From an uncultured virus (IMG/VR IMGVR_UViG_3300028805_000004) (Duplodnaviria > Heunggongvirae > Uroviricota > Caudoviricetes), in IMG/VR virus record IMGVR_UViG_3300028805_000004: a stretch of DNA of 20,000 bases, one strand, 5' to 3'. The translations under genes and the position numbers were made by a program. The notes beneath the pieces are model-generated. The model saw only the letters and a list, made by a program, of their open reading frames with translations. It was not told the origin of the DNA and made no database searches. This document shows, piece after piece, positions 3,316 to 19,932 of this stretch. Positions within the stretch are counted from its first letter, which is position 1. Every line of letters starts with the position of its first letter.

Positions 3316-3858
3316 TTACCTCCTTTTTCCTCGTCGTCTTTGTTTCAGAGCTCTCATACGTGCGATGTTTTCGTCTTTTGACAGTTTCTTCTTAGGAGCG
3401 CTTTCTCGGTTACAATACTCGACAAGGGCTCTAAGACTGTTAAAGTTCCACTTTTCGCACTCGAGTGGTATGTTGTTCTGAAACATCTGAAAATATATGG
3501 TTTCCGCACTAACAAATTTACCAGTACCGTGACGTTGTCCAGGAAGCTCTTTGAAGGTTGCTGCCGTAGCAGGATCATTTATGTACTCTTCAATTTGTTT
3601 CAAATTGTCGTTGGTAAGGGCAAAATACACTAGCGGATTTACATTCTTGGTTAAAGTCATGAAACGTACGTAATCTCGCATCTGTTCTTTGGTTTTCTCA
3701 TTAACCTCATCGAGAAATGGTACCTTCCATTTTGATTCCCACAACCGAATTCCATACAGCGAGTGCTCAAGCCTGAGCGTTGTCTCAGGGACATTGATGA
3801 ATGAGCCTGTTCGCTGGTCGTAGAACTCCCGTCCGGGCACAGTGATTGTGAGAGGCAT
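3316..3858 (-). CDS. Tail assembly chaperone-like protein (second of pair)
   Basis: 180 aa with its own RBS (AAGGAG about 3865-3870). It lies between the major tail protein and the tape measure and has a basic C-terminus. Function is assigned from position only. Confidence 0.6.
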   Translation of the reverse strand: MPLTITVPGREFYDQRTGSFINVPETTLRLEHSLYGIRLWESKWKVPFLDEVNEKTKEQMRDYVRFMTLTKNVNPLVYFALTNDNLKQIEEYINDPATAATFKELPGQRHGTGKFVSAETIYFQMFQNNIPLECEKWNFNSLRALVEYCNRESAPKKKLSKDENIARMRALKQRRRGKRR

Positions 3859-6036: not shown

Positions 6037-7962
6037 TTACTGCTTGGTAACATAGATCGCACTGTACGGCTTGGTCAGCATGCCAGAGCACCGGCCCTCA
6101 AGCAGGTAGGAATACTGGTTGTAGTCCATATCGAACTTGTCGAAGCTGGTGATCTCGCCGCCGGCATTGGTGCCCACAGTGTAGTCCTTGAGGTTCAGGA
6201 TCAGGAGACCGAAATTCGCCGGAACGACTTCCTTCGGAATACGGACGATGCGGGTAACACCGAACGCATCTGCGATCTCGCTCTGATTCTTATACAGACG
6301 ATAACCCTGGCCGTCCTTCATGAGTCTGTAGTCAGCCAGCTGACCTTCGGTCATGAAGCACACCGTGGAACCGGAGCCCTTGTAGTCTTCGAATGCGCGG
6401 ACAGCAGTCTCAAGCATCTCATCAGCAACCTCGTACCGGGTCTTATTGCCGACAGTAACAGACTTCTTGATGGTCCAGAAGTTATCGTCGGAAATGATCG
6501 GATGGATAGAGCCCTCGTCGATCTTGTCCGGGGAAGTAGCGTCACGGCCGTCACCGAAGACGATTGCACGTGCCAGCTCTTCATTCAGCATCTTTCTCAT
6601 CTCTTTCCAGAGCCATGCGATGATGTTGAAGTTCTTGATCCGGATGATGGTCTCACGATCAAGCTTCTGGCGCTTGTAGAACATGCAGGCATCCGTGGAT
6701 CTCCGCATGAGCTTGAAGACTTCTTCCTTCTTCAGGTTGCCCTTAATATAACCACGGGCACGGGCCTCATCTTCGGTAATATCAGCCCACATGGATCTGA
6801 ACTTCTCGAACGGGACATGAGAAACACCGCCGAGAACAACCGAAACCCACTCATCATCACGAGCGATAAGCATCGGCTCCTGATTGAGGTTGTGATCCTC
6901 CGGGAACAGGTAGTCGATGTTCTCGACACCGTAGGAGTCATGCTGAAGAGCTCTGCCATTGCGGCCATCCGGGAAGAATACGGTAAGATCATTCTGTTCT
7001 CTGAACTCATCGCCATAGTCGCCATGAGCCAGGGCCATGGAAACGGCCTTCTTGAACGTGCCGGCAGCCCTCAGGTTGGTGTCATCGAAAATATCATGCT
7101 CAAGAGACTGTCTCGTCTCGATGAAAGCATCAAGGGAAAGAACGCCCTGACCACCGGCGCCCTGCTCAAACGGATTGTACTGCATGTACTCATCACCTCC
7201 AAAATCGTCATGTTCGGCTTCATCGCCGTCGTCTTCATCTTCGTCATCATCGTCAACCTGCTTCTTGATCTCGGAAGCATGGTCAACAGCATACTCAAGA
7301 GCCTGATAGAAGGCCGCCTGCTGCTCCTCATTCATGGTTGCGATAATGTCGTCGAGGGACTTTTTACCCTCAGTCTGTTTTTCAGCCACTGGCTTTTCCT
7401 CCTTTGGCTCGTCGGCATGCTCAATGACAGGCTCGACGGTGGGCTCGAGAGTGTCTTTGGCGAAGACCGAATGCTCGAGCGCGTTGTTATAGAAATAAAA
7501 ATCCCCAGACTCATCATCCGGGGTATAAGATCCATCAGCATGCTGGATTGACGGATACTCGATATAAGCGCCCTCGTTTGCGCCGGCAAGAACAAGGCTT
7601 ACCTCTCGGATGTTACCGTGGTAAACGTTTCCACCGGATTCACGGAGCTGGTTGGCATAGATAGAAAGTGCTGTAACAACACCTTCTTCGATAAGCCCTT
7701 TGGCTTTCTGTCCATCAGCGCTGTGACTCAGAAGGCCATACATGTACATACCTTCCGGCCGACTTTCAAGAAGACCCTTGCCGACTACAGCGTCGAGGTC
7801 TTTGTGGTTATGCTGATAGACGATCGGGACGATCTTGCCGTTGCAGTCGTCAAATGCGCTCTGCTTAATGGTTCGACCATCCGCACACTTAATGTTGAAA
7901 CGTGTTGCCCACCCAGCGAAATCATAGTTTGTCGCTGAGGGGTTCTTATACACATCCCCCAT
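6037..7962 (-). CDS. Prohead protease - scaffold - major capsid protein fusion (641 aa)
   Basis: GAGGAGG (7971-7977) precedes ATG 7960-7962. The N-terminus is an HK97-type prohead protease (FAGWATRFN...IVYQHNH...ALSI...IREVSLVLAGANEGA, with candidate catalytic His/Ser/Glu). It is followed by an acidic linker (DDDDEDEDDGDE) and a ~300-aa HK97-fold capsid region (EELARAIVFGDG; KDYTVGT; FDMDYNQYSYLLEGR). Confidence 0.92.
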   Translation of the reverse strand: MGDVYKNPSATNYDFAGWATRFNIKCADGRTIKQSAFDDCNGKIVPIVYQHNHKDLDAVVGKGLLESRPEGMYMYGLLSHSADGQKAKGLIEEGVVTALSIYANQLRESGGNVYHGNIREVSLVLAGANEGAYIEYPSIQHADGSYTPDDESGDFYFYNNALEHSVFAKDTLEPTVEPVIEHADEPKEEKPVAEKQTEGKKSLDDIIATMNEEQQAAFYQALEYAVDHASEIKKQVDDDDEDEDDGDEAEHDDFGGDEYMQYNPFEQGAGGQGVLSLDAFIETRQSLEHDIFDDTNLRAAGTFKKAVSMALAHGDYGDEFREQNDLTVFFPDGRNGRALQHDSYGVENIDYLFPEDHNLNQEPMLIARDDEWVSVVLGGVSHVPFEKFRSMWADITEDEARARGYIKGNLKKEEVFKLMRRSTDACMFYKRQKLDRETIIRIKNFNIIAWLWKEMRKMLNEELARAIVFGDGRDATSPDKIDEGSIHPIISDDNFWTIKKSVTVGNKTRYEVADEMLETAVRAFEDYKGSGSTVCFMTEGQLADYRLMKDGQGYRLYKNQSEIADAFGVTRIVRIPKEVVPANFGLLILNLKDYTVGTNAGGEITSFDKFDMDYNQYSYLLEGRCSGMLTKPYSAIYVTKQ

Positions 7963-7978
7963 TTTGAATTCCTCCTCT

Positions 7979-9214
7979 CTACTGTTTTTCAACAGGTTCT
8001 TCCTCCTGGGCTGGAGGTTGTTTCTGAGCTTCAGCTTCTGCCGACTGGTTGATGTTCTTGTTTCTCAGTTCATCAGCACCAGGATCCTTAGAAGGAACAA
8101 GACCAAGAATCTGCCTGAACTCGTTAGAAGACATAATCTCATTACGAGTAAGCTTATCCGCAAGGTCTGCAAGCTGAGTTGTCGGAACGAGCTTGAACGG
8201 TTCCCTAAAGAAAAGAATAGACTGCCTCTGAGTACGAGCGGTCTTACTAAGGAACTTCCATCTCATACTATCACAGATAGCTGAAACGAAAGGTTCAAGT
8301 ATTCGGTTCTGGTATTCGAGTTTCTGGTCGTCAGTGGCAGTACCATCAAGGATAGCCTGAGAAAAGCCAATCTGACTGAATACCTGGTTTGTGAAGTACT
8401 CAACCTGTGAAAGCATCTTGTTTTCAATGGCTCGGTTGAGCTGGATGACATGCTCAGTTCCGTCGATGTATGCTACACCGTATTCGGAATCGGCAAGCTG
8501 CGATTTGAGGTCGTCTCTACGCTGCTTTGCCCTTGCCTGCTGAAGCTCTGTGCGTGCACTATAGGGTACCTGGATGATAAGATCAAGCTTATTGGATGCC
8601 GATTGTTCGTCAATCGTATCAAGCAAGTCGAGTTTCCTAATTAGACGCTGCAATGTGGAATTGTACTCATTCATCACAGAATATAACGGATTCTCAACGA
8701 TTGCCGTGATGGATTTGGGAACAACAATCTCCTCAAACTCACACTTATCTTCGTTGTACACACGCACTCTTATGTGTTCTGGAAACCATTCCAGAATCTT
8801 GCCAACCTTCAAGGCCTGAATATCAAAGGATGTCGTCTCTGGATTGAAGTCTGCCCTTGTGATAACAATAGCAACTACTCCTTCATCCATCATAGACATG
8901 ACAACATCCTTGATGAACGCTCTACCTGTCTGATCCCGGTTGGCATTTAAAGTCAGACAGTTGTTAAGACCAGAGTTGATCGGTTCCAGGAATCTATTGT
9001 TTTCGTCCAAACGGACGTGTTTTATAGAAATCTGAGACACGTCAACCGCGATTCTGGTCATAAACGATGCAAGAATAGAGCGCTGGTTCTCTCTTTTCAG
9101 GCGAATTCGATCCGGTCGAGAACCACCTCCGTATCCGCCACGTGAAATATAAGGCGTCGGGTCGCGGCCCAAGAAAGCATTCCACGCATGTTGTAGTCTT
9201 TCACCAAAACCCAT
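7979..9214 (-). CDS. Portal protein (411 aa; start moved from the ORF-track 9448 to ATG 9214)
   Basis: AGGAGGT (9223-9229) precedes ATG 9212-9214 (MGFGERLQHAWNAF). It has HK97-family portal features (RIAVDVSQI, L...ANRDQTG..F, IMSSNEFRQILGLVP) and lies directly upstream of the protease gene. Confidence 0.9.
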   Translation of the reverse strand: MGFGERLQHAWNAFLGRDPTPYISRGGYGGGSRPDRIRLKRENQRSILASFMTRIAVDVSQISIKHVRLDENNRFLEPINSGLNNCLTLNANRDQTGRAFIKDVVMSMMDEGVVAIVITRADFNPETTSFDIQALKVGKILEWFPEHIRVRVYNEDKCEFEEIVVPKSITAIVENPLYSVMNEYNSTLQRLIRKLDLLDTIDEQSASNKLDLIIQVPYSARTELQQARAKQRRDDLKSQLADSEYGVAYIDGTEHVIQLNRAIENKMLSQVEYFTNQVFSQIGFSQAILDGTATDDQKLEYQNRILEPFVSAICDSMRWKFLSKTARTQRQSILFFREPFKLVPTTQLADLADKLTRNEIMSSNEFRQILGLVPSKDPGADELRNKNINQSAEAEAQKQPPAQEEEPVEKQ

Positions 9215-9227
9215 TGTGGGGTACCTC

Positions 9228-9938
9228 CTAGTTATACCTAGAAGTAGACGTACGTCTGTTCCTGCGCCTACTACCGTCACCGTCTTCATAACTTGTGCTG
9301 TACTGTTTTCGGATAGTACCACCATTTCCGTAGTTGGTGACATTATTATTAACAGTATGTTCTGCTTCTTTATACTGAGCTTTATACTTTGTACCCTGGA
9401 TCTCAGATGTACTGATACGGTACACGCCAGCGGCTGCGGCAAGAACATTTATGGCAAAGTTGGCAATCTTTTCGCCCCTTGTTCGAGTGCTTCTGTACGT
9501 GTCTTTTGCAGTTACGTCGATCTTTAGCTTTTTACAAGCATCAGCAATTTCAGCCTGTCTTCCATAAGTTTTAAGGGTCTTCTCGTCCCACATTTCTTGG
9601 ACGTCCTTTAACTTGGCGCGTCTTTTCTGCTGCTTAGCAAGAACTTTTTCAGCTTTTTCGTGTTTTCCGGCCTTGCGCAATCTGTCAACACGAGCGTCAA
9701 GATTAGATAACTCGTTACGAGCCATGATTCCGTGAGCTCTGGAAACAGCCAACGCTTTATCGTTTTTGTTCAACTCACGAGTAAAACGTCTGGCCTGTCG
9801 TTTCAAGCCAGCGGTCGTGAGTGTTCCGTCCTCGTTCTGATATCTTCTTACGCCCCACTTCTGACCCTTTACTCCATGGTGGGCAAGGTATACATCATAT
9901 GCGAAAATATCAGAGGACAGTAATACTGATGTACTCAT
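9228..9938 (-). CDS. HHGxKGxKWG-motif protein (236 aa), basic, putative virion cargo
   Basis: It starts at ATG 9936-9938 (ATGA overlap with the upstream stop, preceded by GGGAGGAG). It has an N-terminal YLAHHGVKGQKWGVRRYQNEDGTLT, a Lys/Arg-rich helical body and one hydrophobic stretch (IANFAINVLAAAAGVY). I recall this motif family as DUF7211 but could not verify it. Confidence 0.8.
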   Translation of the reverse strand: MSTSVLLSSDIFAYDVYLAHHGVKGQKWGVRRYQNEDGTLTTAGLKRQARRFTRELNKNDKALAVSRAHGIMARNELSNLDARVDRLRKAGKHEKAEKVLAKQQKRRAKLKDVQEMWDEKTLKTYGRQAEIADACKKLKIDVTAKDTYRSTRTRGEKIANFAINVLAAAAGVYRISTSEIQGTKYKAQYKEAEHTVNNNVTNYGNGGTIRKQYSTSYEDGDGSRRRNRRTSTSRYN

Positions 9939-10165
9939 TGCTCCTCCCATTTCTTGATCGTTCGATTTCTGACAGCGTCACTATACTTTTTAAGGTCAGA
10001 CATCGGTGAGAAATATCCAACAGTGCCAGTTCTTTTGTCAACACCGTACATGCCCATATGAGTGGTAACAACAAAGTGCGAATTATTGTAGTCTATAAGA
10101 CTGATCGGGTTTAGTTTCGGATAGACAGCTTTAAATCGCTGTATGGCTTTTTCTGATGTAAGCAT
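9935..10165 (-). CDS. Putative immunity protein (Imm35/YrhB-like, 76 aa)
   Basis: It is translationally coupled (TAATG overlap at 10163-10167) to the toxin-tipped polyprotein. The pattern MLTxExA...(beta strands)...YGVDKRTGTV resembles Imm35/PepSY-like proteins. Confidence 0.55.
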   Translation of the reverse strand: MLTSEKAIQRFKAVYPKLNPISLIDYNNSHFVVTTHMGMYGVDKRTGTVGYFSPMSDLKKYSDAVRNRTIKKWEEQ

Positions 10166-13100
10166 TAGTGCACCACCTCTTTAATTTTCTCAGGATCAAA
10201 GTCGACATTGTCCAATCGGGCATACTGAATATTGTTAGCAACAGCCACAACGTTCATTGTATCCATTTTCATGTTGGCTTGTCCGTCATAAACATAGGCT
10301 ACACCATCGACGACTTCATAAGCCATGCTATGTCCGCCACCGCCATCCCAGGTAACCATCAGATTTCCTCGAGCACCGTCTCCTTGAGCTACGAGTTCTT
10401 TCTGGAGCTGCTCATTTACCTCTTGCTTGTACTGCTTTTGTGAGTCTTCAGAATATTTATGAACATACTTACGCTCAAGTTTTTCTGTATCAAGATGTTT
10501 TACCTTGGCGTCAGGATACCATCTTGTAACATCGCCATAATCATAACCAAACTGAACTTCGTTAGCCGTTACATCATAACCACGACGTCTCATGTCATAT
10601 GTGGCCGTACAGCACATGCAGTTATGCTTAGTATTTGTAGCAAGGTTCTTCCAACCTGGATTTACATCTTTAAGATCTTCTTCTCGCGAAGCATTAGTAT
10701 TCTGTTTAAGATGCAGTCCAGTTTCTTCGTCTACTGGTTCACCCTGTTTTCTCTTTTCAGCTTTCGATTTTGCCATTTCTGCAGATATAACGTCCTTGAC
10801 AAAGATTACAGGATCAGCAACCGCTGAAAGGTTAGAGGAGAAAAGCGCATTGACAACTGCTGATACACCATTGGCTATTCCCTCACTGTAGCTAACCTTC
10901 TTTCTTTGAGTTTGCTGGAAATTGAACATTGCCGTCTTAAGATCTGATCCGCTTGTTTTTTCTACGGTTTCTGTCAGCCTTCTCAGATGCACATCCATTG
11001 GTAAACTATCGTCAAATTCGTAACCAAAAGCATCAGCAAGCTCTTTTACTTCCTCTTCAGACATCATTCCACGATTAAGAAATAGTACTAATGAGGCTTT
11101 CTGGTCATTCAAGGTTACTTCATCTTCTTTACTAACATCTTCCCAGCCATCAATAGATCCGCCTCCTCCACCTCCTTGGACTTCAAACTCCATAGATTTG
11201 GCGTTTATCTTAAGCTTGGAAGTTACCTTATCGCGAAGCTCTGCTGCATGCTTTTTGCCAGCAGAAGTCAATCGACCGGCTTCGTCCTGAAACCTTCTTA
11301 TGCCCCACTTCTGACCTTTGATGCCGTGGTGTTCGAGAGCATTATCATCGGCAAATATAACAGCATGAGCAATCTGTTCCAGCCGATACTTGTCACGTGT
11401 GCCTGCTGACGCAGCCTTACCCATTGCTACGCCCATTGGTATGGAGGCAATGTTAGGAAGACCAGCAACTGACGAAGCAAGCGTTGTAGCTACACCAGCT
11501 AATACCGCTTTGCCAATAGCTTTGGTTCGTACAGCTCTGTGTTCATTGTAAATATCATCAACAGTCATCTTTACAAGATGGTCTGCTAACTTTTCGTACA
11601 TTTGCTTCGTGTTCGTTTGCCCACGTGCTATAGCCCTATCGATGTTTTTATCGTAACGCTTCAGCTCCTTCTCTCGAAATTTTTCAGCCTTTTCGTTACG
11701 CCGCAATCCAGCTTTTGTAAGTGTTCCATCTTCATTCTGAAACCGTCTAATACCCCACTTCTGACCTTTTATACCGTGGTGGGCTAGGTAGTTGTTATAA
11801 ACAGAGAGGTCTGAATGATTAATATAATACTCCTCAGCCCGTCTGAAAAAGTCTTCAGCCTGACGTTTTTGCCACAATGCTTTTTGTTCTTCTTGTTCGT
11901 ATCTATTATCAAGAGCTTTTAGTTTCTTGGCTTTATCGGAATCAGAAGGCAGTTTTCGAAGCGCTTTTGCTACTTTTACTCGAAGCGGTGATACTCGAGA
12001 CAAAATCTCGTCAGCTTCAGAAACATTTTTTTGCGCTTTACGAACACCCCTCTCCATTTCTGCTGCATCTAATCTTGCCTTACGTTTTGTAGTTTTAGCA
12101 GCTTTTTTAGCAGCACGAGTTTGCTTTAAAGTATCAAGGTCAAAATCCTGTGGAGTGCCTTTGTAGTCTTTCATGAATTGCCTCATGGATCTGAGACTTT
12201 TTATCATAGAGTCTACATCAGCATCTGTTCTTGCCGCTTTTCCAAGATCTTTTTTCATCTCTTCATAGCGTTTCTCCATATGGGCTTCGAGTTCTGCTCG
12301 TTTCGTATCTGCTTTTGCTTTTTTCTCGACGGGTTGTTCAGAAACTTTTGATTCTGCGTTCTCCTGACCCTTGGACTTATCTGACTTTTTAGTTCGCTCT
12401 TCTAAGTAGTCAAGTCTTGCATTACGAGCGTCATCTTTCTGCTTTTTCATAGCATACTCGTAAGCTTCAGGATTCGTCTGCTTCACAAAGTCGGAGTCGT
12501 ACTTTTTCCCATTAAGCTCTATGGTGTTACCACCACCATTGTTGGGCCCATCCGGATCATTTGGCTTAGTAGATGCTGAAGGCTTGTCAGGATCACCCTT
12601 TTGGTTCTTTGCATCAACTGTGTATTTGCTAATGCGCTCACGAGATTCACGATCAAGTTGATCTTTCTCGCGCTTGTAGTCGATGTCACGCTCAGCAGAA
12701 AGTTTATCTTTCTCAAGAGCTCTCTGATGATCACGCTCTTCTTTCTCGAGCTGACGCTGATACTTGAGTTCGTCGGCAGCTTTCTGCTTACGTTCTTTCT
12801 CGCCAGAAATATCCTCAATGTAATCCTTGGTGTCCTTGATAGCACCAGTTACATCACGGATAGCCTGGAAATATCCAACACCTCGCTTAACCTGCTCAGC
12901 AAAGCCTTTGGCGGCTCTATCGCGTTCGTCGAGTCGATTGTTGGCCTCTCTAAGCTCTTCGACAGTGAACTTGTCAGCATTCATGGTCAGGCCGAGACGA
13001 GTTTTAGCCCAAACCTTCTTCTGGCGCTCAAGCTTCTCGGCAGCTTTACGAGCTTTTACCTCTTTAGCCTTCTGGATTCCGCCACGCGCAGCCTTCACAA

Positions 13101-14169
13101 GACCCACACCGACCTTACGTCCGGCGGACATGGCGCTTTTAATACCATAGCGCTTGGCTCCAGCAGCAGTCAGACTTCCGTCAGCTTTCTGGAACCGTCT
13201 CACACCCCACTTCTGACCCTTGATTCCATGATGAGCCAGATAGGATCTGTAAGAATAAATATCATCATTTACAATCACTGAATGACTAACCTCCTCGCCT
13301 TGCAGCATACTTCGAGCTTCTTTACTGTATTTGTCGAGATCCGACTTCATTCTTTTAAGTTCATTGTCGGTGTACAAGTGTACTGAAGATGTATAGTCAA
13401 TTGCGTTAGTGGTTTTACCAACACTCCGCAAAGCGGATTCTGTTACATATTCCTCTAAGATAGCGCCAGCATACCCGCCGTCTCTTGATGTCGATATGTA
13501 TTTCTCAGCCTGATTACCCAAAGCCTCATCAGAGATTTTCCTAGAAAAATCTTGCAATGTAGACAGCGCTTTATCATAGTCAGACCTAACACGGTTTGGA
13601 TTTTTACCATTAGCAACAAGGCAATAATCGTATGAATTGTATGAACCATCATCCGCAAGGTTTTTAGGTCCCTGCCTATATGCTTCGACAATTCGTTCTT
13701 TAGTCCAACCTTTTATAGTCCGACGATCGGCTTCTGCAAGGCCTGCCACTGTACGATAAAAATCAACATTTTTTTCATAGTCTTCAGCACAAACGCTGCC
13801 AGCTTTTTTAACGCTCATGGCGAGAGATTCGATTTTATCGGCAGTAGCTGTATCTCTTGTGATGACATTGTCTACTAAATTGTCAATTTTATTTTTAACC
13901 CTGTCAAAGTCATTAGCCCGACGATTATTAGCATCTACTTGCCTAGCTTTTGCGGGATTCAGAAATCGTTCTTTAAAAGAGAGTTGCTGGTATTCAGGCC
14001 GATCGCCAAACCTATCAGATGCCTTGAATATCTTCTTTACTATCTTGTAGTTCTTTTTGGTGTTACTTAAAGGATCTTTAATTCTTGTCCCATCGTAATT
14101 CTGGAACCTTCTTACACCCCACTTCTGACCTTTGATGCCGTGGTGGGCTAAATATGTTGTGTAGCTCAT
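10165..14169 (-). CDS. Modular polyprotein (1334 aa) with four HHGIKGQKWG repeats and a C-terminal papain-fold toxin-like (Tox-PL/glutamine deamidase) domain
   Basis: AGGAGG (14176-14181) lies 6 nt before ATG 14167-14169. Repeats start at about aa 6, 310, 794 and 944. The C-terminal domain reads VNP...NCMCC...RRRGYDVTA...GDGARGNLMVTW..GGHS......G.AYVYDGQ, with Cys at 10618-10620, His at 10330-10332 and Asp at 10285-10287. Confidence 0.8.
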   Translation of the reverse strand: MSYTTYLAHHGIKGQKWGVRRFQNYDGTRIKDPLSNTKKNYKIVKKIFKASDRFGDRPEYQQLSFKERFLNPAKARQVDANNRRANDFDRVKNKIDNLVDNVITRDTATADKIESLAMSVKKAGSVCAEDYEKNVDFYRTVAGLAEADRRTIKGWTKERIVEAYRQGPKNLADDGSYNSYDYCLVANGKNPNRVRSDYDKALSTLQDFSRKISDEALGNQAEKYISTSRDGGYAGAILEEYVTESALRSVGKTTNAIDYTSSVHLYTDNELKRMKSDLDKYSKEARSMLQGEEVSHSVIVNDDIYSYRSYLAHHGIKGQKWGVRRFQKADGSLTAAGAKRYGIKSAMSAGRKVGVGLVKAARGGIQKAKEVKARKAAEKLERQKKVWAKTRLGLTMNADKFTVEELREANNRLDERDRAAKGFAEQVKRGVGYFQAIRDVTGAIKDTKDYIEDISGEKERKQKAADELKYQRQLEKEERDHQRALEKDKLSAERDIDYKREKDQLDRESRERISKYTVDAKNQKGDPDKPSASTKPNDPDGPNNGGGNTIELNGKKYDSDFVKQTNPEAYEYAMKKQKDDARNARLDYLEERTKKSDKSKGQENAESKVSEQPVEKKAKADTKRAELEAHMEKRYEEMKKDLGKAARTDADVDSMIKSLRSMRQFMKDYKGTPQDFDLDTLKQTRAAKKAAKTTKRKARLDAAEMERGVRKAQKNVSEADEILSRVSPLRVKVAKALRKLPSDSDKAKKLKALDNRYEQEEQKALWQKRQAEDFFRRAEEYYINHSDLSVYNNYLAHHGIKGQKWGIRRFQNEDGTLTKAGLRRNEKAEKFREKELKRYDKNIDRAIARGQTNTKQMYEKLADHLVKMTVDDIYNEHRAVRTKAIGKAVLAGVATTLASSVAGLPNIASIPMGVAMGKAASAGTRDKYRLEQIAHAVIFADDNALEHHGIKGQKWGIRRFQDEAGRLTSAGKKHAAELRDKVTSKLKINAKSMEFEVQGGGGGGSIDGWEDVSKEDEVTLNDQKASLVLFLNRGMMSEEEVKELADAFGYEFDDSLPMDVHLRRLTETVEKTSGSDLKTAMFNFQQTQRKKVSYSEGIANGVSAVVNALFSSNLSAVADPVIFVKDVISAEMAKSKAEKRKQGEPVDEETGLHLKQNTNASREEDLKDVNPGWKNLATNTKHNCMCCTATYDMRRRGYDVTANEVQFGYDYGDVTRWYPDAKVKHLDTEKLERKYVHKYSEDSQKQYKQEVNEQLQKELVAQGDGARGNLMVTWDGGGGHSMAYEVVDGVAYVYDGQANMKMDTMNVVAVANNIQYARLDNVDFDPEKIKEVVH

Positions 14170-14192
14170 ACAAGCCCTCCTGCTTTTGGTGC

Positions 14193-14741
14193 TCACATGC
14201 TCAAGCCATGATTGCTCAGATAGTTCTGGTATGCAGAAATATCAGAATGCTTTACATCCTTACCTGCATGGCCATCATTGGTAATCTTTGCATCCTGGAA
14301 ACTGACTGTAACGTGTTTCCTAAAGTATTCTTCCTGTTTCTTTTTCTTTTTCTTGTATCTTTCTAACGACTTGGCAGCCTTCTTTGTGGCTTTCTGTAAA
14401 CGTTTGTGATTTTTGTCTATTTCGCGCTGCTTCTTTTGCAGCTTCATCAAGGATCCAACGCCTTTAAGCACTTCTTTAGAGGAATTGGCAACGTTTTCCC
14501 AATTTACTTTTTCTCCTCTTTTCAACGGGAAGTAAATTTCATCAGCAATACCTTCTCGCCAGCCTTCATCTATATCGGCCTTTAAATCTTCTATTGTTTC
14601 ACCATCTTCATTAGTCAAAGGTTTACCACCTCCGCCGCCTTGTCCTTCAAATTTGACAGACTTGGCATCGCTGGCATCTTTATGATGTCCCCACTTCATG
14701 CCTTTTACGCCATGGTGGGCAAGATAAGCTCCGTAACCCAT
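14193..14741 (-). CDS. HHGxKGxKWG-motif protein (182 aa; start moved to ATG 14741)
   Basis: GAGGTG overlaps the terL stop and precedes ATG 14739-14741. The sequence is MGYGAYLAHHGVKGMKWGHHK, then a poly-Gly linker, a Lys-rich helix, and a degenerate copy of the junction motif at the C-terminus. Confidence 0.8.
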   Translation of the reverse strand: MGYGAYLAHHGVKGMKWGHHKDASDAKSVKFEGQGGGGGKPLTNEDGETIEDLKADIDEGWREGIADEIYFPLKRGEKVNWENVANSSKEVLKGVGSLMKLQKKQREIDKNHKRLQKATKKAAKSLERYKKKKKKQEEYFRKHVTVSFQDAKITNDGHAGKDVKHSDISAYQNYLSNHGLSM

Positions 14742-14748
14742 AAGCACC

Positions 14749-16497
14749 TCACTCAAACATGTCAATGTTCTGTCTATAGGCAACCCATGCATCCATCAAG
14801 GCCGATACATTATCGATCTTGTCAGCATAACGCTTCTTCCAAAGCTTACGGTTGCCATTGGTATCTTCAAGAACCATGGCATTGCCCATAGTCATACTCA
14901 TTAGTTCCTCATCAAAGAGCAGCATGCGCTCACTGGCAAGTTTCTTCAACTCACCGAGCGGAACTGACTCTGTCTTTACTCCCTGGATTACCTTAACAAC
15001 TCCAAACTCGCCTCGATCTTGAATATAACGAGCAACAAACTCCTTAGCATTATACGGGTCGTAGCCCATGCAGAGAACGTCGTACTGTTGGTCTTCCATA
15101 AACTGGTCGAGGTCGTCGTAAACGTCCATCATGTTGAGGACTGTTCCTTCAAATACGACGAGACTGCCTTCATCCATGAACTGACGATACTTGTCCCTTG
15201 CTGCCGGCTGTAGCCTTTCATAAGTTAACGAAGAAATATAACTTCGAACCTTGATTCCGAACTTCCCGTTCTTCAACGGGAACAAGAAGGTGGCTGCACA
15301 GAAGTCGTCACCTTGAGATAAGTCCAAACCAAGAGCACACGGCATCTTCCAATAGCTCCGTTTCCGATGTGGCTGTATCTCAGCATACGTGAAGTAGTAG
15401 GTGAGCCCCTCCATCGGTATCCCGAAACGCTTGGCAAGAATATCGTTGCGAGCAGACGGAACGTTTTCAGCTCTTTCGACGTCGAGCTGGTAGGTTTCCC
15501 AGGAAACTGTCTTTCCGAGATTCGGATTAGCTTTGAGCCACATGTCAGGATCGTTGACTTCCGAAACATCGTCAAGACGGTAATACCAAATGGACACATG
15601 CGGTGCATAATAGTCACCTCGAAGGATGTCCATTAACTCCATTTTGATTGAGTCTCCAGCTCCGTTACGAACACAACCCTCAGAGCTAGAAGCGATGATG
15701 ATGTAGTCGTCCAATCCACCCTTTCGAGCACCCTGTTCAAGAGCACCGACCGGATCTTCTCGCAGAACACCAGAGAGCCACTCGTCTACTGTGGAATACT
15801 TCACTCGTAATCCCTGAAGCTTGTCAATGACCATCGGTCTGATCTCAAGAAGGGAGTTTGTGAGAAGATTCTCGATACCCTTTTTGGTACTGGCAAGCTT
15901 TGGACGGTTCATCTTGGAACCAGTGGTGTTCTGCATCGAGCCATTGGTCAGAAATCTGAAGAATGGTCCTCGTGACTTGGTGATGGAGGTCTTGAATGGA
16001 GACAAAACCTCCTCGGACTGTTTCATCGTTGGTGCAGTTGTGACCTGATGAGTTGTCGACGGGTCTACTGTCAAGCCGAATGCCTGAATGCAGAAGTCGT
16101 ACATACTCTTAGCCGCTCCTCGAGCAACAATCAGATACTGCTTTGTTGTCAGACGCTTCTTGACTGTCCGAACAACGTAACGAACTCCGTGTCCGTTAGG
16201 GTCTGGCTCCGGTACCGGCTGTCTTACAAAGTAATACCAACCATAGAGCTGTTCGGCCCAAAGCTTAAAGCTGTCCAACAAGAAGAGAGGCTGACCGTCG
16301 GTTAAGGTAAGTTCGTTTTCACAGAACTCAACCCAGCCGTCGATAGCCTCATCATCGTAAAAGTATTTTGGATTGGCTATGAGAGCGTCAATCCTATTCA
16401 TCTCCATAGAGATTTCTTCATTGACCGGTATCTCCCCCCGAAGAACCTGATCACGAAACTCTTTGTAGTATTTCGGGGTAGCTCGATTTGAAAGCAT
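14749..16497 (-). CDS. terL: Terminase large subunit
   Basis: 582 aa with Walker A 'LIVARGAAKS', Walker B 'YSTVDE', coupling motif 'IASSSEG', and RNase H-fold nuclease motifs 'LGLDLSQGDD', 'YDPYNA' and 'KIDNVSALMDA'. Confidence 0.95.
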   Translation of the reverse strand: MLSNRATPKYYKEFRDQVLRGEIPVNEEISMEMNRIDALIANPKYFYDDEAIDGWVEFCENELTLTDGQPLFLLDSFKLWAEQLYGWYYFVRQPVPEPDPNGHGVRYVVRTVKKRLTTKQYLIVARGAAKSMYDFCIQAFGLTVDPSTTHQVTTAPTMKQSEEVLSPFKTSITKSRGPFFRFLTNGSMQNTTGSKMNRPKLASTKKGIENLLTNSLLEIRPMVIDKLQGLRVKYSTVDEWLSGVLREDPVGALEQGARKGGLDDYIIIASSSEGCVRNGAGDSIKMELMDILRGDYYAPHVSIWYYRLDDVSEVNDPDMWLKANPNLGKTVSWETYQLDVERAENVPSARNDILAKRFGIPMEGLTYYFTYAEIQPHRKRSYWKMPCALGLDLSQGDDFCAATFLFPLKNGKFGIKVRSYISSLTYERLQPAARDKYRQFMDEGSLVVFEGTVLNMMDVYDDLDQFMEDQQYDVLCMGYDPYNAKEFVARYIQDRGEFGVVKVIQGVKTESVPLGELKKLASERMLLFDEELMSMTMGNAMVLEDTNGNRKLWKKRYADKIDNVSALMDAWVAYRQNIDMFE

Positions 16498-17790: not shown

Positions 17791-19932
17791 TTACTTAAGA
17801 AGCTTAAATATCTCGATGTCTGACAGCCAGGCATCACCGAGTGCGTTCTTGAGACCGTCGCCAAAGTGACCAGGATACTCAACGCCCTTTGGATCAAGCC
17901 CCTTGCAGTAAGCAATGATCTGAACAGCTGTGACGACATACTGTGTTTCACCCTTACGAATGTAATGGCCTTCAAAAGCCTTACGTGTAAGCGGACCAAG
18001 ATCTCCGTCTTCCTTAAGACCAGAACCCCAGTCAAGGTTTGCAGCATGCTGAAGACATCTCACCATCTGGCGGTTGGTATTACTCCCTCGAATGCCATCA
18101 AGCTCGATCTTGAAACCTGTGAACTTGACGGATTCGGTCTGTCCCTTGAACACCAACTCCTGAATGGGTGTGAGCTTCTTGGCCGGCTTGACGTAATGGA
18201 AACGAACTCCGTAACCGAACTTCCGCCCATAGTCTCTCCAAGCCGGTTCAATGAACTCTGATCTGTAGGGCTGCTCTCTCTGGATCTTGGAATCCATTCC
18301 GAAATCCCATTTTGAAATTACCGGAGCGTAATCGGACGCCATAACAAACGTATGGAACGTCGGATCACCAGGAGCTGCAATGATGACGATGTCACCAGCC
18401 TGAAGATCTTCCTTGCGATCAATCTTGTCAGCTACACCGAGATTGACAAGCTTGATGAAGTCCTTGGTAAGGTCTCCATGACTTCCACCGAGGTCAGCTC
18501 GCTGCCTGGTCCATCCGAGATTATACATTGCAGCTGAGGCAAGTCTGTCACAAGACCACTCGGAAGTTCTGCCAATCGGGAAACACTTGTTGTCACCGTA
18601 CAGGTTGATTCCTTTGGACCCATGCGGATCGAGACTGAAGGCATAGTCCGCTACAGCGTCGAGCTCCTTAAGCCACTGCTCCTTGGTGAACGGGATTGCA
18701 GTAAGCCGCTGACCCTTCATGTGGAACACGTAGTCCTCGATAAGCTTAAGGCTGGTCTTCGGTCCGAACTCACCGTCAACTTCAAGCTTCCCTCGCCAAC
18801 CCTTCTGGTACTCACGGACAGCAAGCATCGAGAGTCCGCCGTAGTCACCATCAAGGTTTCCGGTGTACCAGCCAAGGACACGCAAGCACTGCTGCATCTC
18901 TCTGACTGTGAGCTGATACCGGCTGCCGGAAACAAGAACGATGACAGTATGACCCTTGGTCTTGGTTACGAGAATATCACCTCGAGCCAGCTCTTCCTGG
19001 GACTTCACGTAAACCTGGTCGAAGTAGCCACTGTTGGAAAGGGCAGACGGTTCGTCACCAGTGTAGAAGTCTTTGATGTCGATGCCAGAATATTTGATGC
19101 AGCATCTGACAAGACGAGCGCAGTCGGTCTCACAGGGCGTCGTGACCTTAGAGAGATCGAAGTCTACTTTCTTGGCTACGGAATATAAGCTCTGGTTGTT
19201 GGACTGGTCGTAACCAATGTTGTCGTTGGCACAAGCAGCCTCCATGGCTTCAGCAATGAGCTCTCGTACGAAGACAGACTTGGCTCTGAATATGAACCAG
19301 CCCTTGGGATGATCGTAGTAGGGCTGGGTTGAAACCTCGCGACCATTGTTGTCTCCGGCCTGTCCGCCAGAAATGTTGCCGTTCTCGTCAATGCGAGCTG
19401 ATCCGATCGTAACCATTGTATGTACTCCTATGTCATACTGTGTGAGATTAAACTCGTTGATGATCCTCATTACTGAAGAAACATAGGTTGGGCCGGTAGC
19501 ATAGCCACGCTGGCTAACCTGAGTGATTAAAGCTCGAGGATCTGTAATCTTCAGCACATCACGATACTTGTAATGCCCTCCAGTCTTAGCATCTCGCATG
19601 AACTGAAGATAGTCATAAAAGCAATCATCCAGAGTTCTATACTTGCGGAAAGAATCCCAAATGGTTGTTGGCACTCCGTTGTAAACCTCAGGGGTGTATT
19701 TCTCAACTGTATCACCATGCCAGAACTCTGACTTCCAGGTTGAATTGAGAAGCTCTGTCTTCATTCCAAGGCAGTTGTTAGCCTGGGAATATAGTTCACT
19801 GCCTGAACCAGTACCGAAACCAGGTTCTAGACAGGCCTGGGCAATGAGAACCGACGGCAAATAACCGCTAAATCGTAGACAAGCAGCAACAGCTAAAGGT
19901 GCTACAAGCTGCACGTATCCATCTCGTGTCAT
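17791..19932 (-). CDS. Multi-domain endolysin (GH73 glucosaminidase + two NlpC/P60/CHAP-like peptidase domains + peptidoglycan-binding domains)
   Basis: 713 aa, RBS AAGGAG at 19939-19944. GH73 motifs: PSVLIAQACLE.GFG, ANNCLGMK, FRKY, GYAT. Peptidase 1: IGYDQ, TDC, GDILV, GHT. PG_binding_1: MQQCL..LGW..G.LDGDYG...AVREYQ....LEVDGEFGPKT. Peptidase 2: YGD, SCD, LQAGDIV, HTF. The C-terminus has DG..G..T repeats. Confidence 0.88.
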   Translation of the reverse strand: MTRDGYVQLVAPLAVAACLRFSGYLPSVLIAQACLEPGFGTGSGSELYSQANNCLGMKTELLNSTWKSEFWHGDTVEKYTPEVYNGVPTTIWDSFRKYRTLDDCFYDYLQFMRDAKTGGHYKYRDVLKITDPRALITQVSQRGYATGPTYVSSVMRIINEFNLTQYDIGVHTMVTIGSARIDENGNISGGQAGDNNGREVSTQPYYDHPKGWFIFRAKSVFVRELIAEAMEAACANDNIGYDQSNNQSLYSVAKKVDFDLSKVTTPCETDCARLVRCCIKYSGIDIKDFYTGDEPSALSNSGYFDQVYVKSQEELARGDILVTKTKGHTVIVLVSGSRYQLTVREMQQCLRVLGWYTGNLDGDYGGLSMLAVREYQKGWRGKLEVDGEFGPKTSLKLIEDYVFHMKGQRLTAIPFTKEQWLKELDAVADYAFSLDPHGSKGINLYGDNKCFPIGRTSEWSCDRLASAAMYNLGWTRQRADLGGSHGDLTKDFIKLVNLGVADKIDRKEDLQAGDIVIIAAPGDPTFHTFVMASDYAPVISKWDFGMDSKIQREQPYRSEFIEPAWRDYGRKFGYGVRFHYVKPAKKLTPIQELVFKGQTESVKFTGFKIELDGIRGSNTNRQMVRCLQHAANLDWGSGLKEDGDLGPLTRKAFEGHYIRKGETQYVVTAVQIIAYCKGLDPKGVEYPGHFGDGLKNALGDAWLSDIEIFKLLK

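Follow-up and report, generated by a model that had tools for sequence, protein, structure and literature searches.

The proteases of herpesviruses and the prohead protease gp21 of phage T4 cut at short site motifs, which serve as the standard of comparison here. In T4, gp21 degrades the core and trims internal proteins (PMC9958956), head proteins of phage SPN3US are cut after A-x-E by gp245 (PMC7411985), and the fusion of protease, scaffold and capsid in a single gene is itself already in print (PMC5513430, PMC7302621). Here we describe a 20,000-nucleotide stretch of an uncultured Caudoviricetes virus (IMG/VR record IMGVR_UViG_3300028805_000004; the whole stretch is called the window below), which comprises the head and tail genes, all on the minus strand, of a siphophage contig of 63.9 kb. 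It encodes such a fusion of 651 residues together with three proteins, one of them a polyprotein, that carry the short Pfam family DUF7211 (PF23847), whose function is unassigned in Pfam. Taken as a whole, the best explanation of our observations is probably that the head protease trims both the scaffold and the DUF7211-tagged cargo after hydrophobic-x-His sites.

The scaffold region of the fusion, residues 148–354 (207 residues) of the open reading frame (ORF) at 6037–7992, contains eight His residues and all eight lie in an [LIVA]-x-H context, as a first-pass annotation of this sequence had noticed; none of 200,000 shuffles matched this arrangement. The eight sites read IQH-A, LEH-S, IEH-A, VDH-A, AEH-D, LEH-D, LAH-G and LQH-D, and the region around them is modelled mostly with a predicted local distance difference test (pLDDT) score below 50, except for one helical hairpin at residues 213–248. 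The expected enrichment in related scaffolds was also found: across 148 proteins (the query and 147 of 150 representatives sharing less than 50% identity, after dropping one near-identical row and skipping two misaligned ones), 779 of the 872 scaffold His other than His151 follow [LIVAM]-x-H, compared to 147 of 495 in the capsid domain, which equals background. His151, which closes the protease domain, is present in 150 of 150 aligned rows. Scaffolds hold between 4 and 14 His each, which amounts to 3.2% of residues compared to 1.1% in capsids, and in 145 of the 148 proteins the residue two places before the last scaffold His is L, I, M, V, F or A. This last His lies 10–63 residues from the conserved capsid Pro, a range indicating that insertions are tolerated after this last site.

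Across 136 loci that cover the complete head module and were not de-duplicated, we counted hydrophobic-x-H-[SA]-[DE] 293 times where 6.4 are expected; the same pattern with Q, N, E, K or R in place of H stays at or below expectation, and no other repeated motif of the same shape is enriched. Gln, considered as an alternative P1 residue, was rejected (5 seen in scaffolds, 5.2 expected). The residue that follows the His is S, A, G, D, N or T in 858 of 953 scaffold sites. In the one outgroup fusion inspected by eye, that of Gordonia phage Schiebs, there is no such run of sites. Because the motif sits at both domain borders and is scattered through a variable and mostly disordered spacer, as prohead-protease sites do, the scaffold His are likely cut sites, and on these comparisons cleavage of the scaffold after hydrophobic-x-His is very probable; the side of the His that is cut we infer by likeness to the T4, SPN3US and herpes sites.

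The enzyme that would make these cuts is encoded at the head of the same ORF. All 150 aligned representatives share His61, Ser110 (in ALSI), Glu130 and Ser132, to which roles are assigned from their position in the profile. By sequence, the domain matches TIGR01543 (HK97 prohead protease equivalog) with an E value of 1.7e-6 and 28.3 bits, under the curated cut-off of 59 bits, and the best score among 20 fusions, 53.2 bits, is under it as well. By structure, its model (pLDDT 88) matches the varicella-zoster virus protease (Z 10.5, root-mean-square deviation 3.1, 118 aligned) and T4 gp21 (Z 10.2, root-mean-square deviation 2.5, 114 aligned), with the next unrelated row at Z 4.5, and the top Foldseek hits are all herpes proteases; we found no solved structure matching the fusion by sequence. 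Judged from this model, the domain is apparently an intact assemblin-type serine protease with the herpes/T4-gp21 fold. The earlier proposal that it cuts after His gains strong comparative support for the protease–scaffold–capsid precursor, with the ALSI Ser invariant, and the cargo is weighed separately below. The capsid domain matches HK97-type capsids in Foldseek (those of a gene transfer agent, Muddy and HK97; E 1e-13), many of which have about 280–315 residues, and recomputing the product of a cut after LQH returned the 300 residues previously given, beginning DSYGVEN. Some capsid fusions (L001:6971-9031, L002:11992-14130 and others) have C-terminal extensions past the HK97 fold that the window protein lacks.

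DUF7211 is found six times in the genome, all within the window: once in the ORF at 14193–14738, four times in the polyprotein at 10165–14169 and once in the ORF at 9228–9950 (34.4, 91.4 over four stretches, and 34.9 bits, against a threshold of 27). Each of the six opens LAH-H or LEH-H, in agreement with the first-pass annotation, and the consensus of the tag is hydrophobic-x-H-[H/Y]-G-[I/V]-K-G-[M/Q]-K-W-G. It is present in 133 of 166 loci in a first set and in 132 of 136 complete head modules in a larger one. We placed 411 tags relative to the packaging genes and found 376 between adaptor and portal (162 adaptor–terminase, 214 terminase–portal), 30 before the adaptor and 5 elsewhere. The capsid fusion matches 244 of 50,697 phage records, mostly Arthrobacter, Gordonia and Streptomyces phages together with Rhodococcus ReqiPoco6 and Pepy6 and Lactococcus 1706; the tag matches 230, with near-identical organism tallies (tallies, not record-by-record pairing). 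The depositors of phage 1706 label its orf7, which has two profile-scored tags plus a third of variant form, 'structural protein', and orf15-16, in tail-chaperone positions, 'unknown' (record labels only). In Arthrobacter phage Mudcat, gp7 has two tags. We consider it likely that tagged proteins are packaged in the head.

A variant of the tag heads the putative RNA polymerase of the phage, which is encoded outside the window (G000:C1:472-3258, minus strand, locus L246; phrog_4291) and begins MSELFH-YG. Its homologues retain the DxDGD motif in 67 of 67 non-redundant sequences and carry the variant tag behind a leader of variable length in 61, with a near variant in most of the six misses; the same type of variant also heads head-module genes in L028 and L161. 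The variant tag suggests, from sequence, a virion-packaged polymerase in a siphophage of ordinary size.

The polyprotein consists of modules of 287, 472, 138 and 387 residues, three of the four basic, joined by short acidic spacers of 17, 12 and 12 residues; if both sites of every junction were cut, the predicted products would be of 33, 54, 15 and 43 kDa. A second site had been placed 10–16 residues ahead of each internal junction; the sites (VSH-S, INH-S and IAH-A) exist, but the spacing is 17, 12 and 12 residues from His to His. The string NALEH is indeed common to the scaffold (residue 174 of the capsid precursor) and the polyprotein (residue 956 of its 1,343-residue reading). The terminal VVH-stop is likewise present but is poorly conserved and doubtful as a cut site, the homologous modules having VVH, VVH, AVH, VVR, AVR, AVR and AVE there. 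Among the matches listed, 120 polyprotein homologues of 733–2,335 residues (49 after de-duplication) all have between two and seven tags. Module order and number vary, and both the papain-like module and the body of the ORF at 9228–9950 occur as single tagged genes and inside polyproteins, the latter body matching module 5 of P0164, module 2 of P0242 and module 3 of P0166 and P0189.

The second site is common to many of these junctions. A strict version lies 5–33 residues upstream at 82 of 147 distinct internal junctions, whereas of 1,344 control windows taken from module bodies 29 have one; with a relaxed pattern the counts are 107 of 150 and 48 of 1,367. As the junctions are related, we grouped 150 of them into 37 spacer families, in 22 of which the majority of members have a second site. 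This enrichment supports selection for separation by the head protease, and together with the modules found both alone and fused it makes dicing of the polyprotein inside the head, as first proposed, the more probable outcome, if with ample room for doubt; the accompanying idea that released modules start HG(I/V)KG is itself doubtful for the reason given below. In the junction spacers of P0154, P0156 and P0161 and at L007:5110, GGNM or GGTM is followed by a leader that elsewhere forms the N terminus of stand-alone genes. This would fit read-through of a former ribosome-binding site with its start codon, and internal starts may still be used.

The sequence of events that we envisage begins with the capsid being made as a protease–scaffold–capsid fusion and with the prohead assembling first. 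The Ser-His protease of herpes/T4-gp21 type would then cut after hydrophobic-x-His wherever the next residue is small (S, A, G, D or N), and these cuts would free the protease at His151, chop the scaffold and leave the 300-residue capsid protein. DUF7211-tagged proteins and the variant-tagged RNA polymerase would enter the prohead as internal proteins and meet the same protease, fused tagged genes would keep or gain a scaffold-type second site at their junctions, and the polyprotein would be cut into modules in the head, possibly with release of the short acidic spacer. The modules, a papain-like peptidase here and GNATs and others in relatives, would probably be ejected into the next host, and an untagged PepSY-like inhibitor may hold the peptidase in check while still in the producing cell. 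What the computations show is the enrichment and placement of the motif, the fold of the protease, the shuffling of modules and the linkage of genes; cleavage itself, packaging, ejection and inhibition are what we infer from them.

Several observations weigh against trimming of scaffold and cargo alike. The tag profile was seeded with the His fixed, so that the conservation of His in the tags is partly built in. Nor did we find a tag-free member of the lineage that could serve as the comparison first suggested: of the 136 head modules four lack the canonical tag, and three of these four have variant tags (the scaffolds of the four keep the motif, at 23 of 25 His). Strict second sites are missing from 65 of the 147 junctions. 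Hydrophobic-x-H-small columns are also conserved outside the head, with 116 sites among 118 homologues of the ORF at 3316–3858, 74 among 134 tail terminators and 36 among 125 major tail proteins. Cargo bodies show no clear depletion, with 21 sites where 28.9 are expected (p 0.07), while the terminase is depleted (17 compared to 38), so that this comparison is uninformative. We found no virion proteomics or cleavage mapping for the lineage in the literature, subscription papers and supplements being outside the search. A further objection is that H, Y, F or W comes directly after the His in 537 of 559 distinct tags but in only 20 of 953 scaffold sites. Because tag and scaffold differ in this way, the tag His may be a docking or slow site with the real cut perhaps upstream, and a cut exactly at the tag His falls slightly short of an even chance on the sequences compared.

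The alternative built on this difference agrees that the scaffold is cut after His and departs from common trimming only in where the cargo is cut: the tag His would be a docking or packaging element, uncut or slowly cut, and the upstream sites alone would split the polyproteins, so that each module would begin with its spacer (SVIVN, SDLSV, AVIFA) and neighbours would stay fused wherever the upstream site is missing. Beyond the opposite preference after His, it draws on the upstream junction His, which is mostly followed by S, T or D and is thus of scaffold type, and on the redundancy of a second site if the tag were well cut. The many junctions without a second site speak against it, as does the architecture of the tag, in which an acidic leader of freely varying length precedes a conserved, basic part after the His, as expected of a removed propeptide. 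We regard this alternative as unlikely. We saw no signal for C-terminal trimming, as the sites do not cluster towards the ends of 249 tagged proteins. Co-folding of the capsid precursor (residues 18–651) with a 39-residue tag peptide scored 0.00, evidence neither way.

A more distant alternative treats the His sites as repeated binding motifs, for example metal-bridged or capsid-lining contacts, that attach scaffold and cargo to the shell, with processing taking place elsewhere. In 35 of 148 proteins the last scaffold site directly adjoins the capsid arm and reads H-(G/S/N)-(I/V), much as a tag begins, and the conserved sites in tail-related proteins would fit as well; but sites exactly at both domain borders, a hydrophobic −2 and small +1 residue that fit the T4 and SPN3US (A-x-E) type of site, and the lack of any other enriched motif of the same shape make it improbable. 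That tagged proteins stay in the infected cell (as DNA-binding proteins, assembly factors or anti-defence proteins), with polyproteins arising as neutral fusions via conserved tag DNA, is more improbable still, for although spacers resembling translated ribosome-binding sites and starts (GGNM) fit a fusion of once separate genes, the enriched junction sites imply that separation by the head protease is selected for, the record of 1706 gives orf7 as structural and tagged genes sit in the packaging module.

The LEH-S in the ORF at 3316–3858 (minus strand), dismissed by the first-pass annotation as a chance match, is in fact a conserved column (His at 3765), being shared by nearly all homologues, and as such columns occur in tail proteins, one conserved hydrophobic-x-H-small column carries little weight by itself. 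This holds for the portal too: LQH-A is present as described, but as a cut site it is doubtful, with the His kept in 75 of 120 scored homologues and N, R, K, S or Q found there in the other 45 (134 N termini examined, 14 unscored). The starts of portal and polyprotein given in Table 1 were read from ribosome-binding sites in the sequence.

The C-terminal papain-fold domain of module 4 has its N-C and H catalytic motifs intact, with N53, C54, C57 and H150 invariant in 22 of 22 rows and Q167 in at least 90%. Some Tox-PL1 domains are described as releasing peptidases (Zhang et al., PMC3482391), and by analogy the domain could help to process the polyprotein; at least 38 of the 49 non-redundant polyproteins, however, have no PF15644 among the matches listed while their junction sites are the same, which counts against papain-driven processing. 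Polyproteins of relatives add GNAT domains, combined with a papain domain in one chain in P0152, P0155 and P0156, and some (P0205, P0251) contain sigma-70 region 4 or helix-turn-helix modules. Directly downstream of 23 of 32 papain ORFs lies a member of a small protein family, represented in the window by the untagged 76-residue protein; 23 of the family's 27 profile matches are so placed and the other four are in loci that also have a papain ORF, both profiles having been built from the same loci, some of them near-duplicates. Of the 19 family sequences scanned, two match PepSY weakly and below cut-off (E 0.0008 and 0.003), and no match was obtained for the window protein, whose Atlas structural neighbours in rows 4–6 are PepSY-domain clusters, below the bar for naming a family. 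By likeness to MuF toxin–immunity modules, the papain module and the 76-residue protein would form a peptidase–inhibitor pair.

Table 1 Positions of the features discussed, numbered from the first letter of the window
Feature	Position	Strand	Basis or remark
HK97-fold major capsid protein, predicted mature form 300 residues from DSYG	6037..6939	−	Pfam PF05065 above cut-off; Foldseek
Scaffold region, eight hydrophobic-x-His sites	6940..7548	−	His codons begin 7542, 7473, 7419, 7281, 7212, 7098, 7026, 6942
Prohead protease domain of the fusion (ORF 6037–7992)	7552..7929	−	Invariant His61, Ser110, Glu130, Ser132; fold match
Portal protein, N-terminal LQH-A inside conserved R-L-x-H-A-W-N-A-F, doubtful cut site	7979..9214	−	PF04860; ATG 9214
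Stand-alone tagged protein, tag His 9881	9228..9950	−	PF23847; body is an internal polyprotein module in relatives
Untagged 76-residue PepSY-like protein, candidate inhibitor (immunity) of papain module	9935..10165	−	Gene linkage
Polyprotein, 1,334 residues, four DUF7211 tags (His 14145, 13233, 11781, 11331)	10165..14169	−	ATG 14169; length as in database record P0151
Papain-fold domain (Tox-PL1 / Gln_amidase family), C-terminal in module 4	10168..10779	−	PF15644, E 2.1e-7, 32.5 bits vs 24.1
Junction 3: IAH-A, spacer, LEH-H	11329..11373	−	Sequence
Junction 2: INH-S, spacer, LAH-H	11779..11823	−	Sequence
Junction 1: VSH-S, spacer, LAH-H	13231..13290	−	Sequence
Stand-alone tagged protein, tag His 14717, ends VKH-S, spacer, LSNH-G, stop	14193..14738	−	Spacer resembles junction 2 and a P0153 junction
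Terminase large subunit	14749..16497	−	Context: tagged genes cluster on either side of the terminase in relatives

The genes run in the order lysin, HNH, adaptor, terminase, portal and capsid fusion, followed by tail genes, and the phage is a member of the Lactococcus 1706 / cluster AM-AU-BI-CC-DJ lineage. Candidatus Heliusvirales was weighed as its lineage and set aside, the marker genes given in the available text of PMC11283538 being others. Single-sequence locus searches with the capsid fusion and the RNA polymerase returned no matches, and the relatives came from alignment and protein searches. Upstream of the terminase, as in clusters AM and AU, lies a 713-residue endolysin (17791–19932, minus strand) with glucosaminidase, ELLD and peptidoglycan-binding domains. 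The C-terminal end of the tagged protein closest to the terminase (14193–14255, minus strand) has the look of a decayed junction, which would fit the loss or splitting-off of a module that once followed. In L002:1951-3567 and L005:3522-5234 the tag is mid-protein (in Hydrus after a region annotated as 'RNA ligase') and the N-terminal part is studded with hydrophobic-x-His, and in L003:7391-8002, L002:11181-11831 and L005:11336-11944 a gene between portal and capsid fusion has a third variant start, hydrophobic-x-His with YDP.KA.EYY a few residues further on.

If common trimming is true, it provides a function for DUF7211 and exact predicted cut sites in a lineage of about 240 records, mostly cultured phages, with many gut-type metagenome relatives. 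We did not find a prohead protease that cuts after His described in the literature searched, T4 and SPN3US cutting after Glu. Dicing of polyproteins within the head, together with packaging of the RNA polymerase, would account for the way these phages start infection and renew their effector sets. Being short, the tag would also make a useful tool for loading proteins of choice into a siphophage head, in the manner of the T4 capsid-targeting sequence. Our broadest proposal, which we offer tentatively as somewhat short of probable, is a portable loading system across the lineage, in which the tag loads interchangeable effectors and the polymerase, a His-specific protease with a two-site code dices up to seven shuffled modules and untagged inhibitors stay behind. 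The available text of PMC5513430, PMC7302621, PMC5883640, PMC13432834, 10.1101/842583 and 10.1101/2022.11.23.517428 mentions at most the gene fusion or the RNA polymerase, and searches within the same limits as above found no paper on the DUF7211 tag or on cleavage at it, the tag strings turning up only in unrelated papers.

Among described systems, MuF polymorphic toxins, including MuF-Tox-PL1, are alike in having variable effectors in the head module that are predicted to be packaged and are followed by an immunity gene, a place taken here by the candidate inhibitor, with papain-like Tox-PL1 among their cargoes too (as presented in PMC3482391 and PMC12226406). The system described here is not a MuF system: neither Pfam nor PHROGs matched a MuF domain in the ORFs of the window, Pfam matched none in 22 relatives, and a peptide of about 20 residues stands in place of the MuF domain; the PepSY-like partner has no match to Imm35. 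Polyvalent proteins (Iyer et al. 2017, PMC5512222) are described as large multi-module proteins near virion genes, with GNAT and other enzymes, predicted to be packaged, processed and injected. The trait of several disparate domains per chain near virion genes is found here as well, with two to seven modules. Whereas polyvalent proteins are, in that account, processed mainly by built-in zincin metallopeptidases, each module here has its own tag and predicted head-protease sites. No zincin metallopeptidase, ArdC-N or LPD domain was matched by Pfam in the window protein or 22 relatives, although most module bodies match no family and such domains are common rather than obligatory, and the words Rhodococcus and Lactococcus are absent from the main text of PMC5512222.

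The mode of action, by analogy, resembles T4 capsid targeting and prohead-protease trimming, and the cargo logic resembles that of MuF toxins and polyvalent proteins. SPN3US, as described in PMC7411985, is alike in using one short motif on capsid, portal and ejection proteins and in its hydrophobic/small-x-P1 pattern; it differs in its long propeptides, Glu at P1 and separate protease gene, and no repeated portable tag is described there. T4 IPI–III and Alt (PMC9958956, PMC7411985) are non-essential internal proteins with a short N-terminal signal, the role predicted here for the tag, and gp21 uses the fold modelled here to degrade scaffold and trim cargo at a short motif, as the present protease would. 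In these accounts T4 has Glu at P1, whereas the predicted P1 here is His and the protease is fused to scaffold and capsid; the T4 targeting sequence is removed, whereas most of the conserved tag here is C-terminal to the predicted cut and would remain attached to the cargo; and the cargo here, unlike that of T4, is polymorphic and in many cases takes the form of a polyprotein. This system is thereby distinguished from T4 by its His site, by the tag that would be retained and by its two-site junctions.

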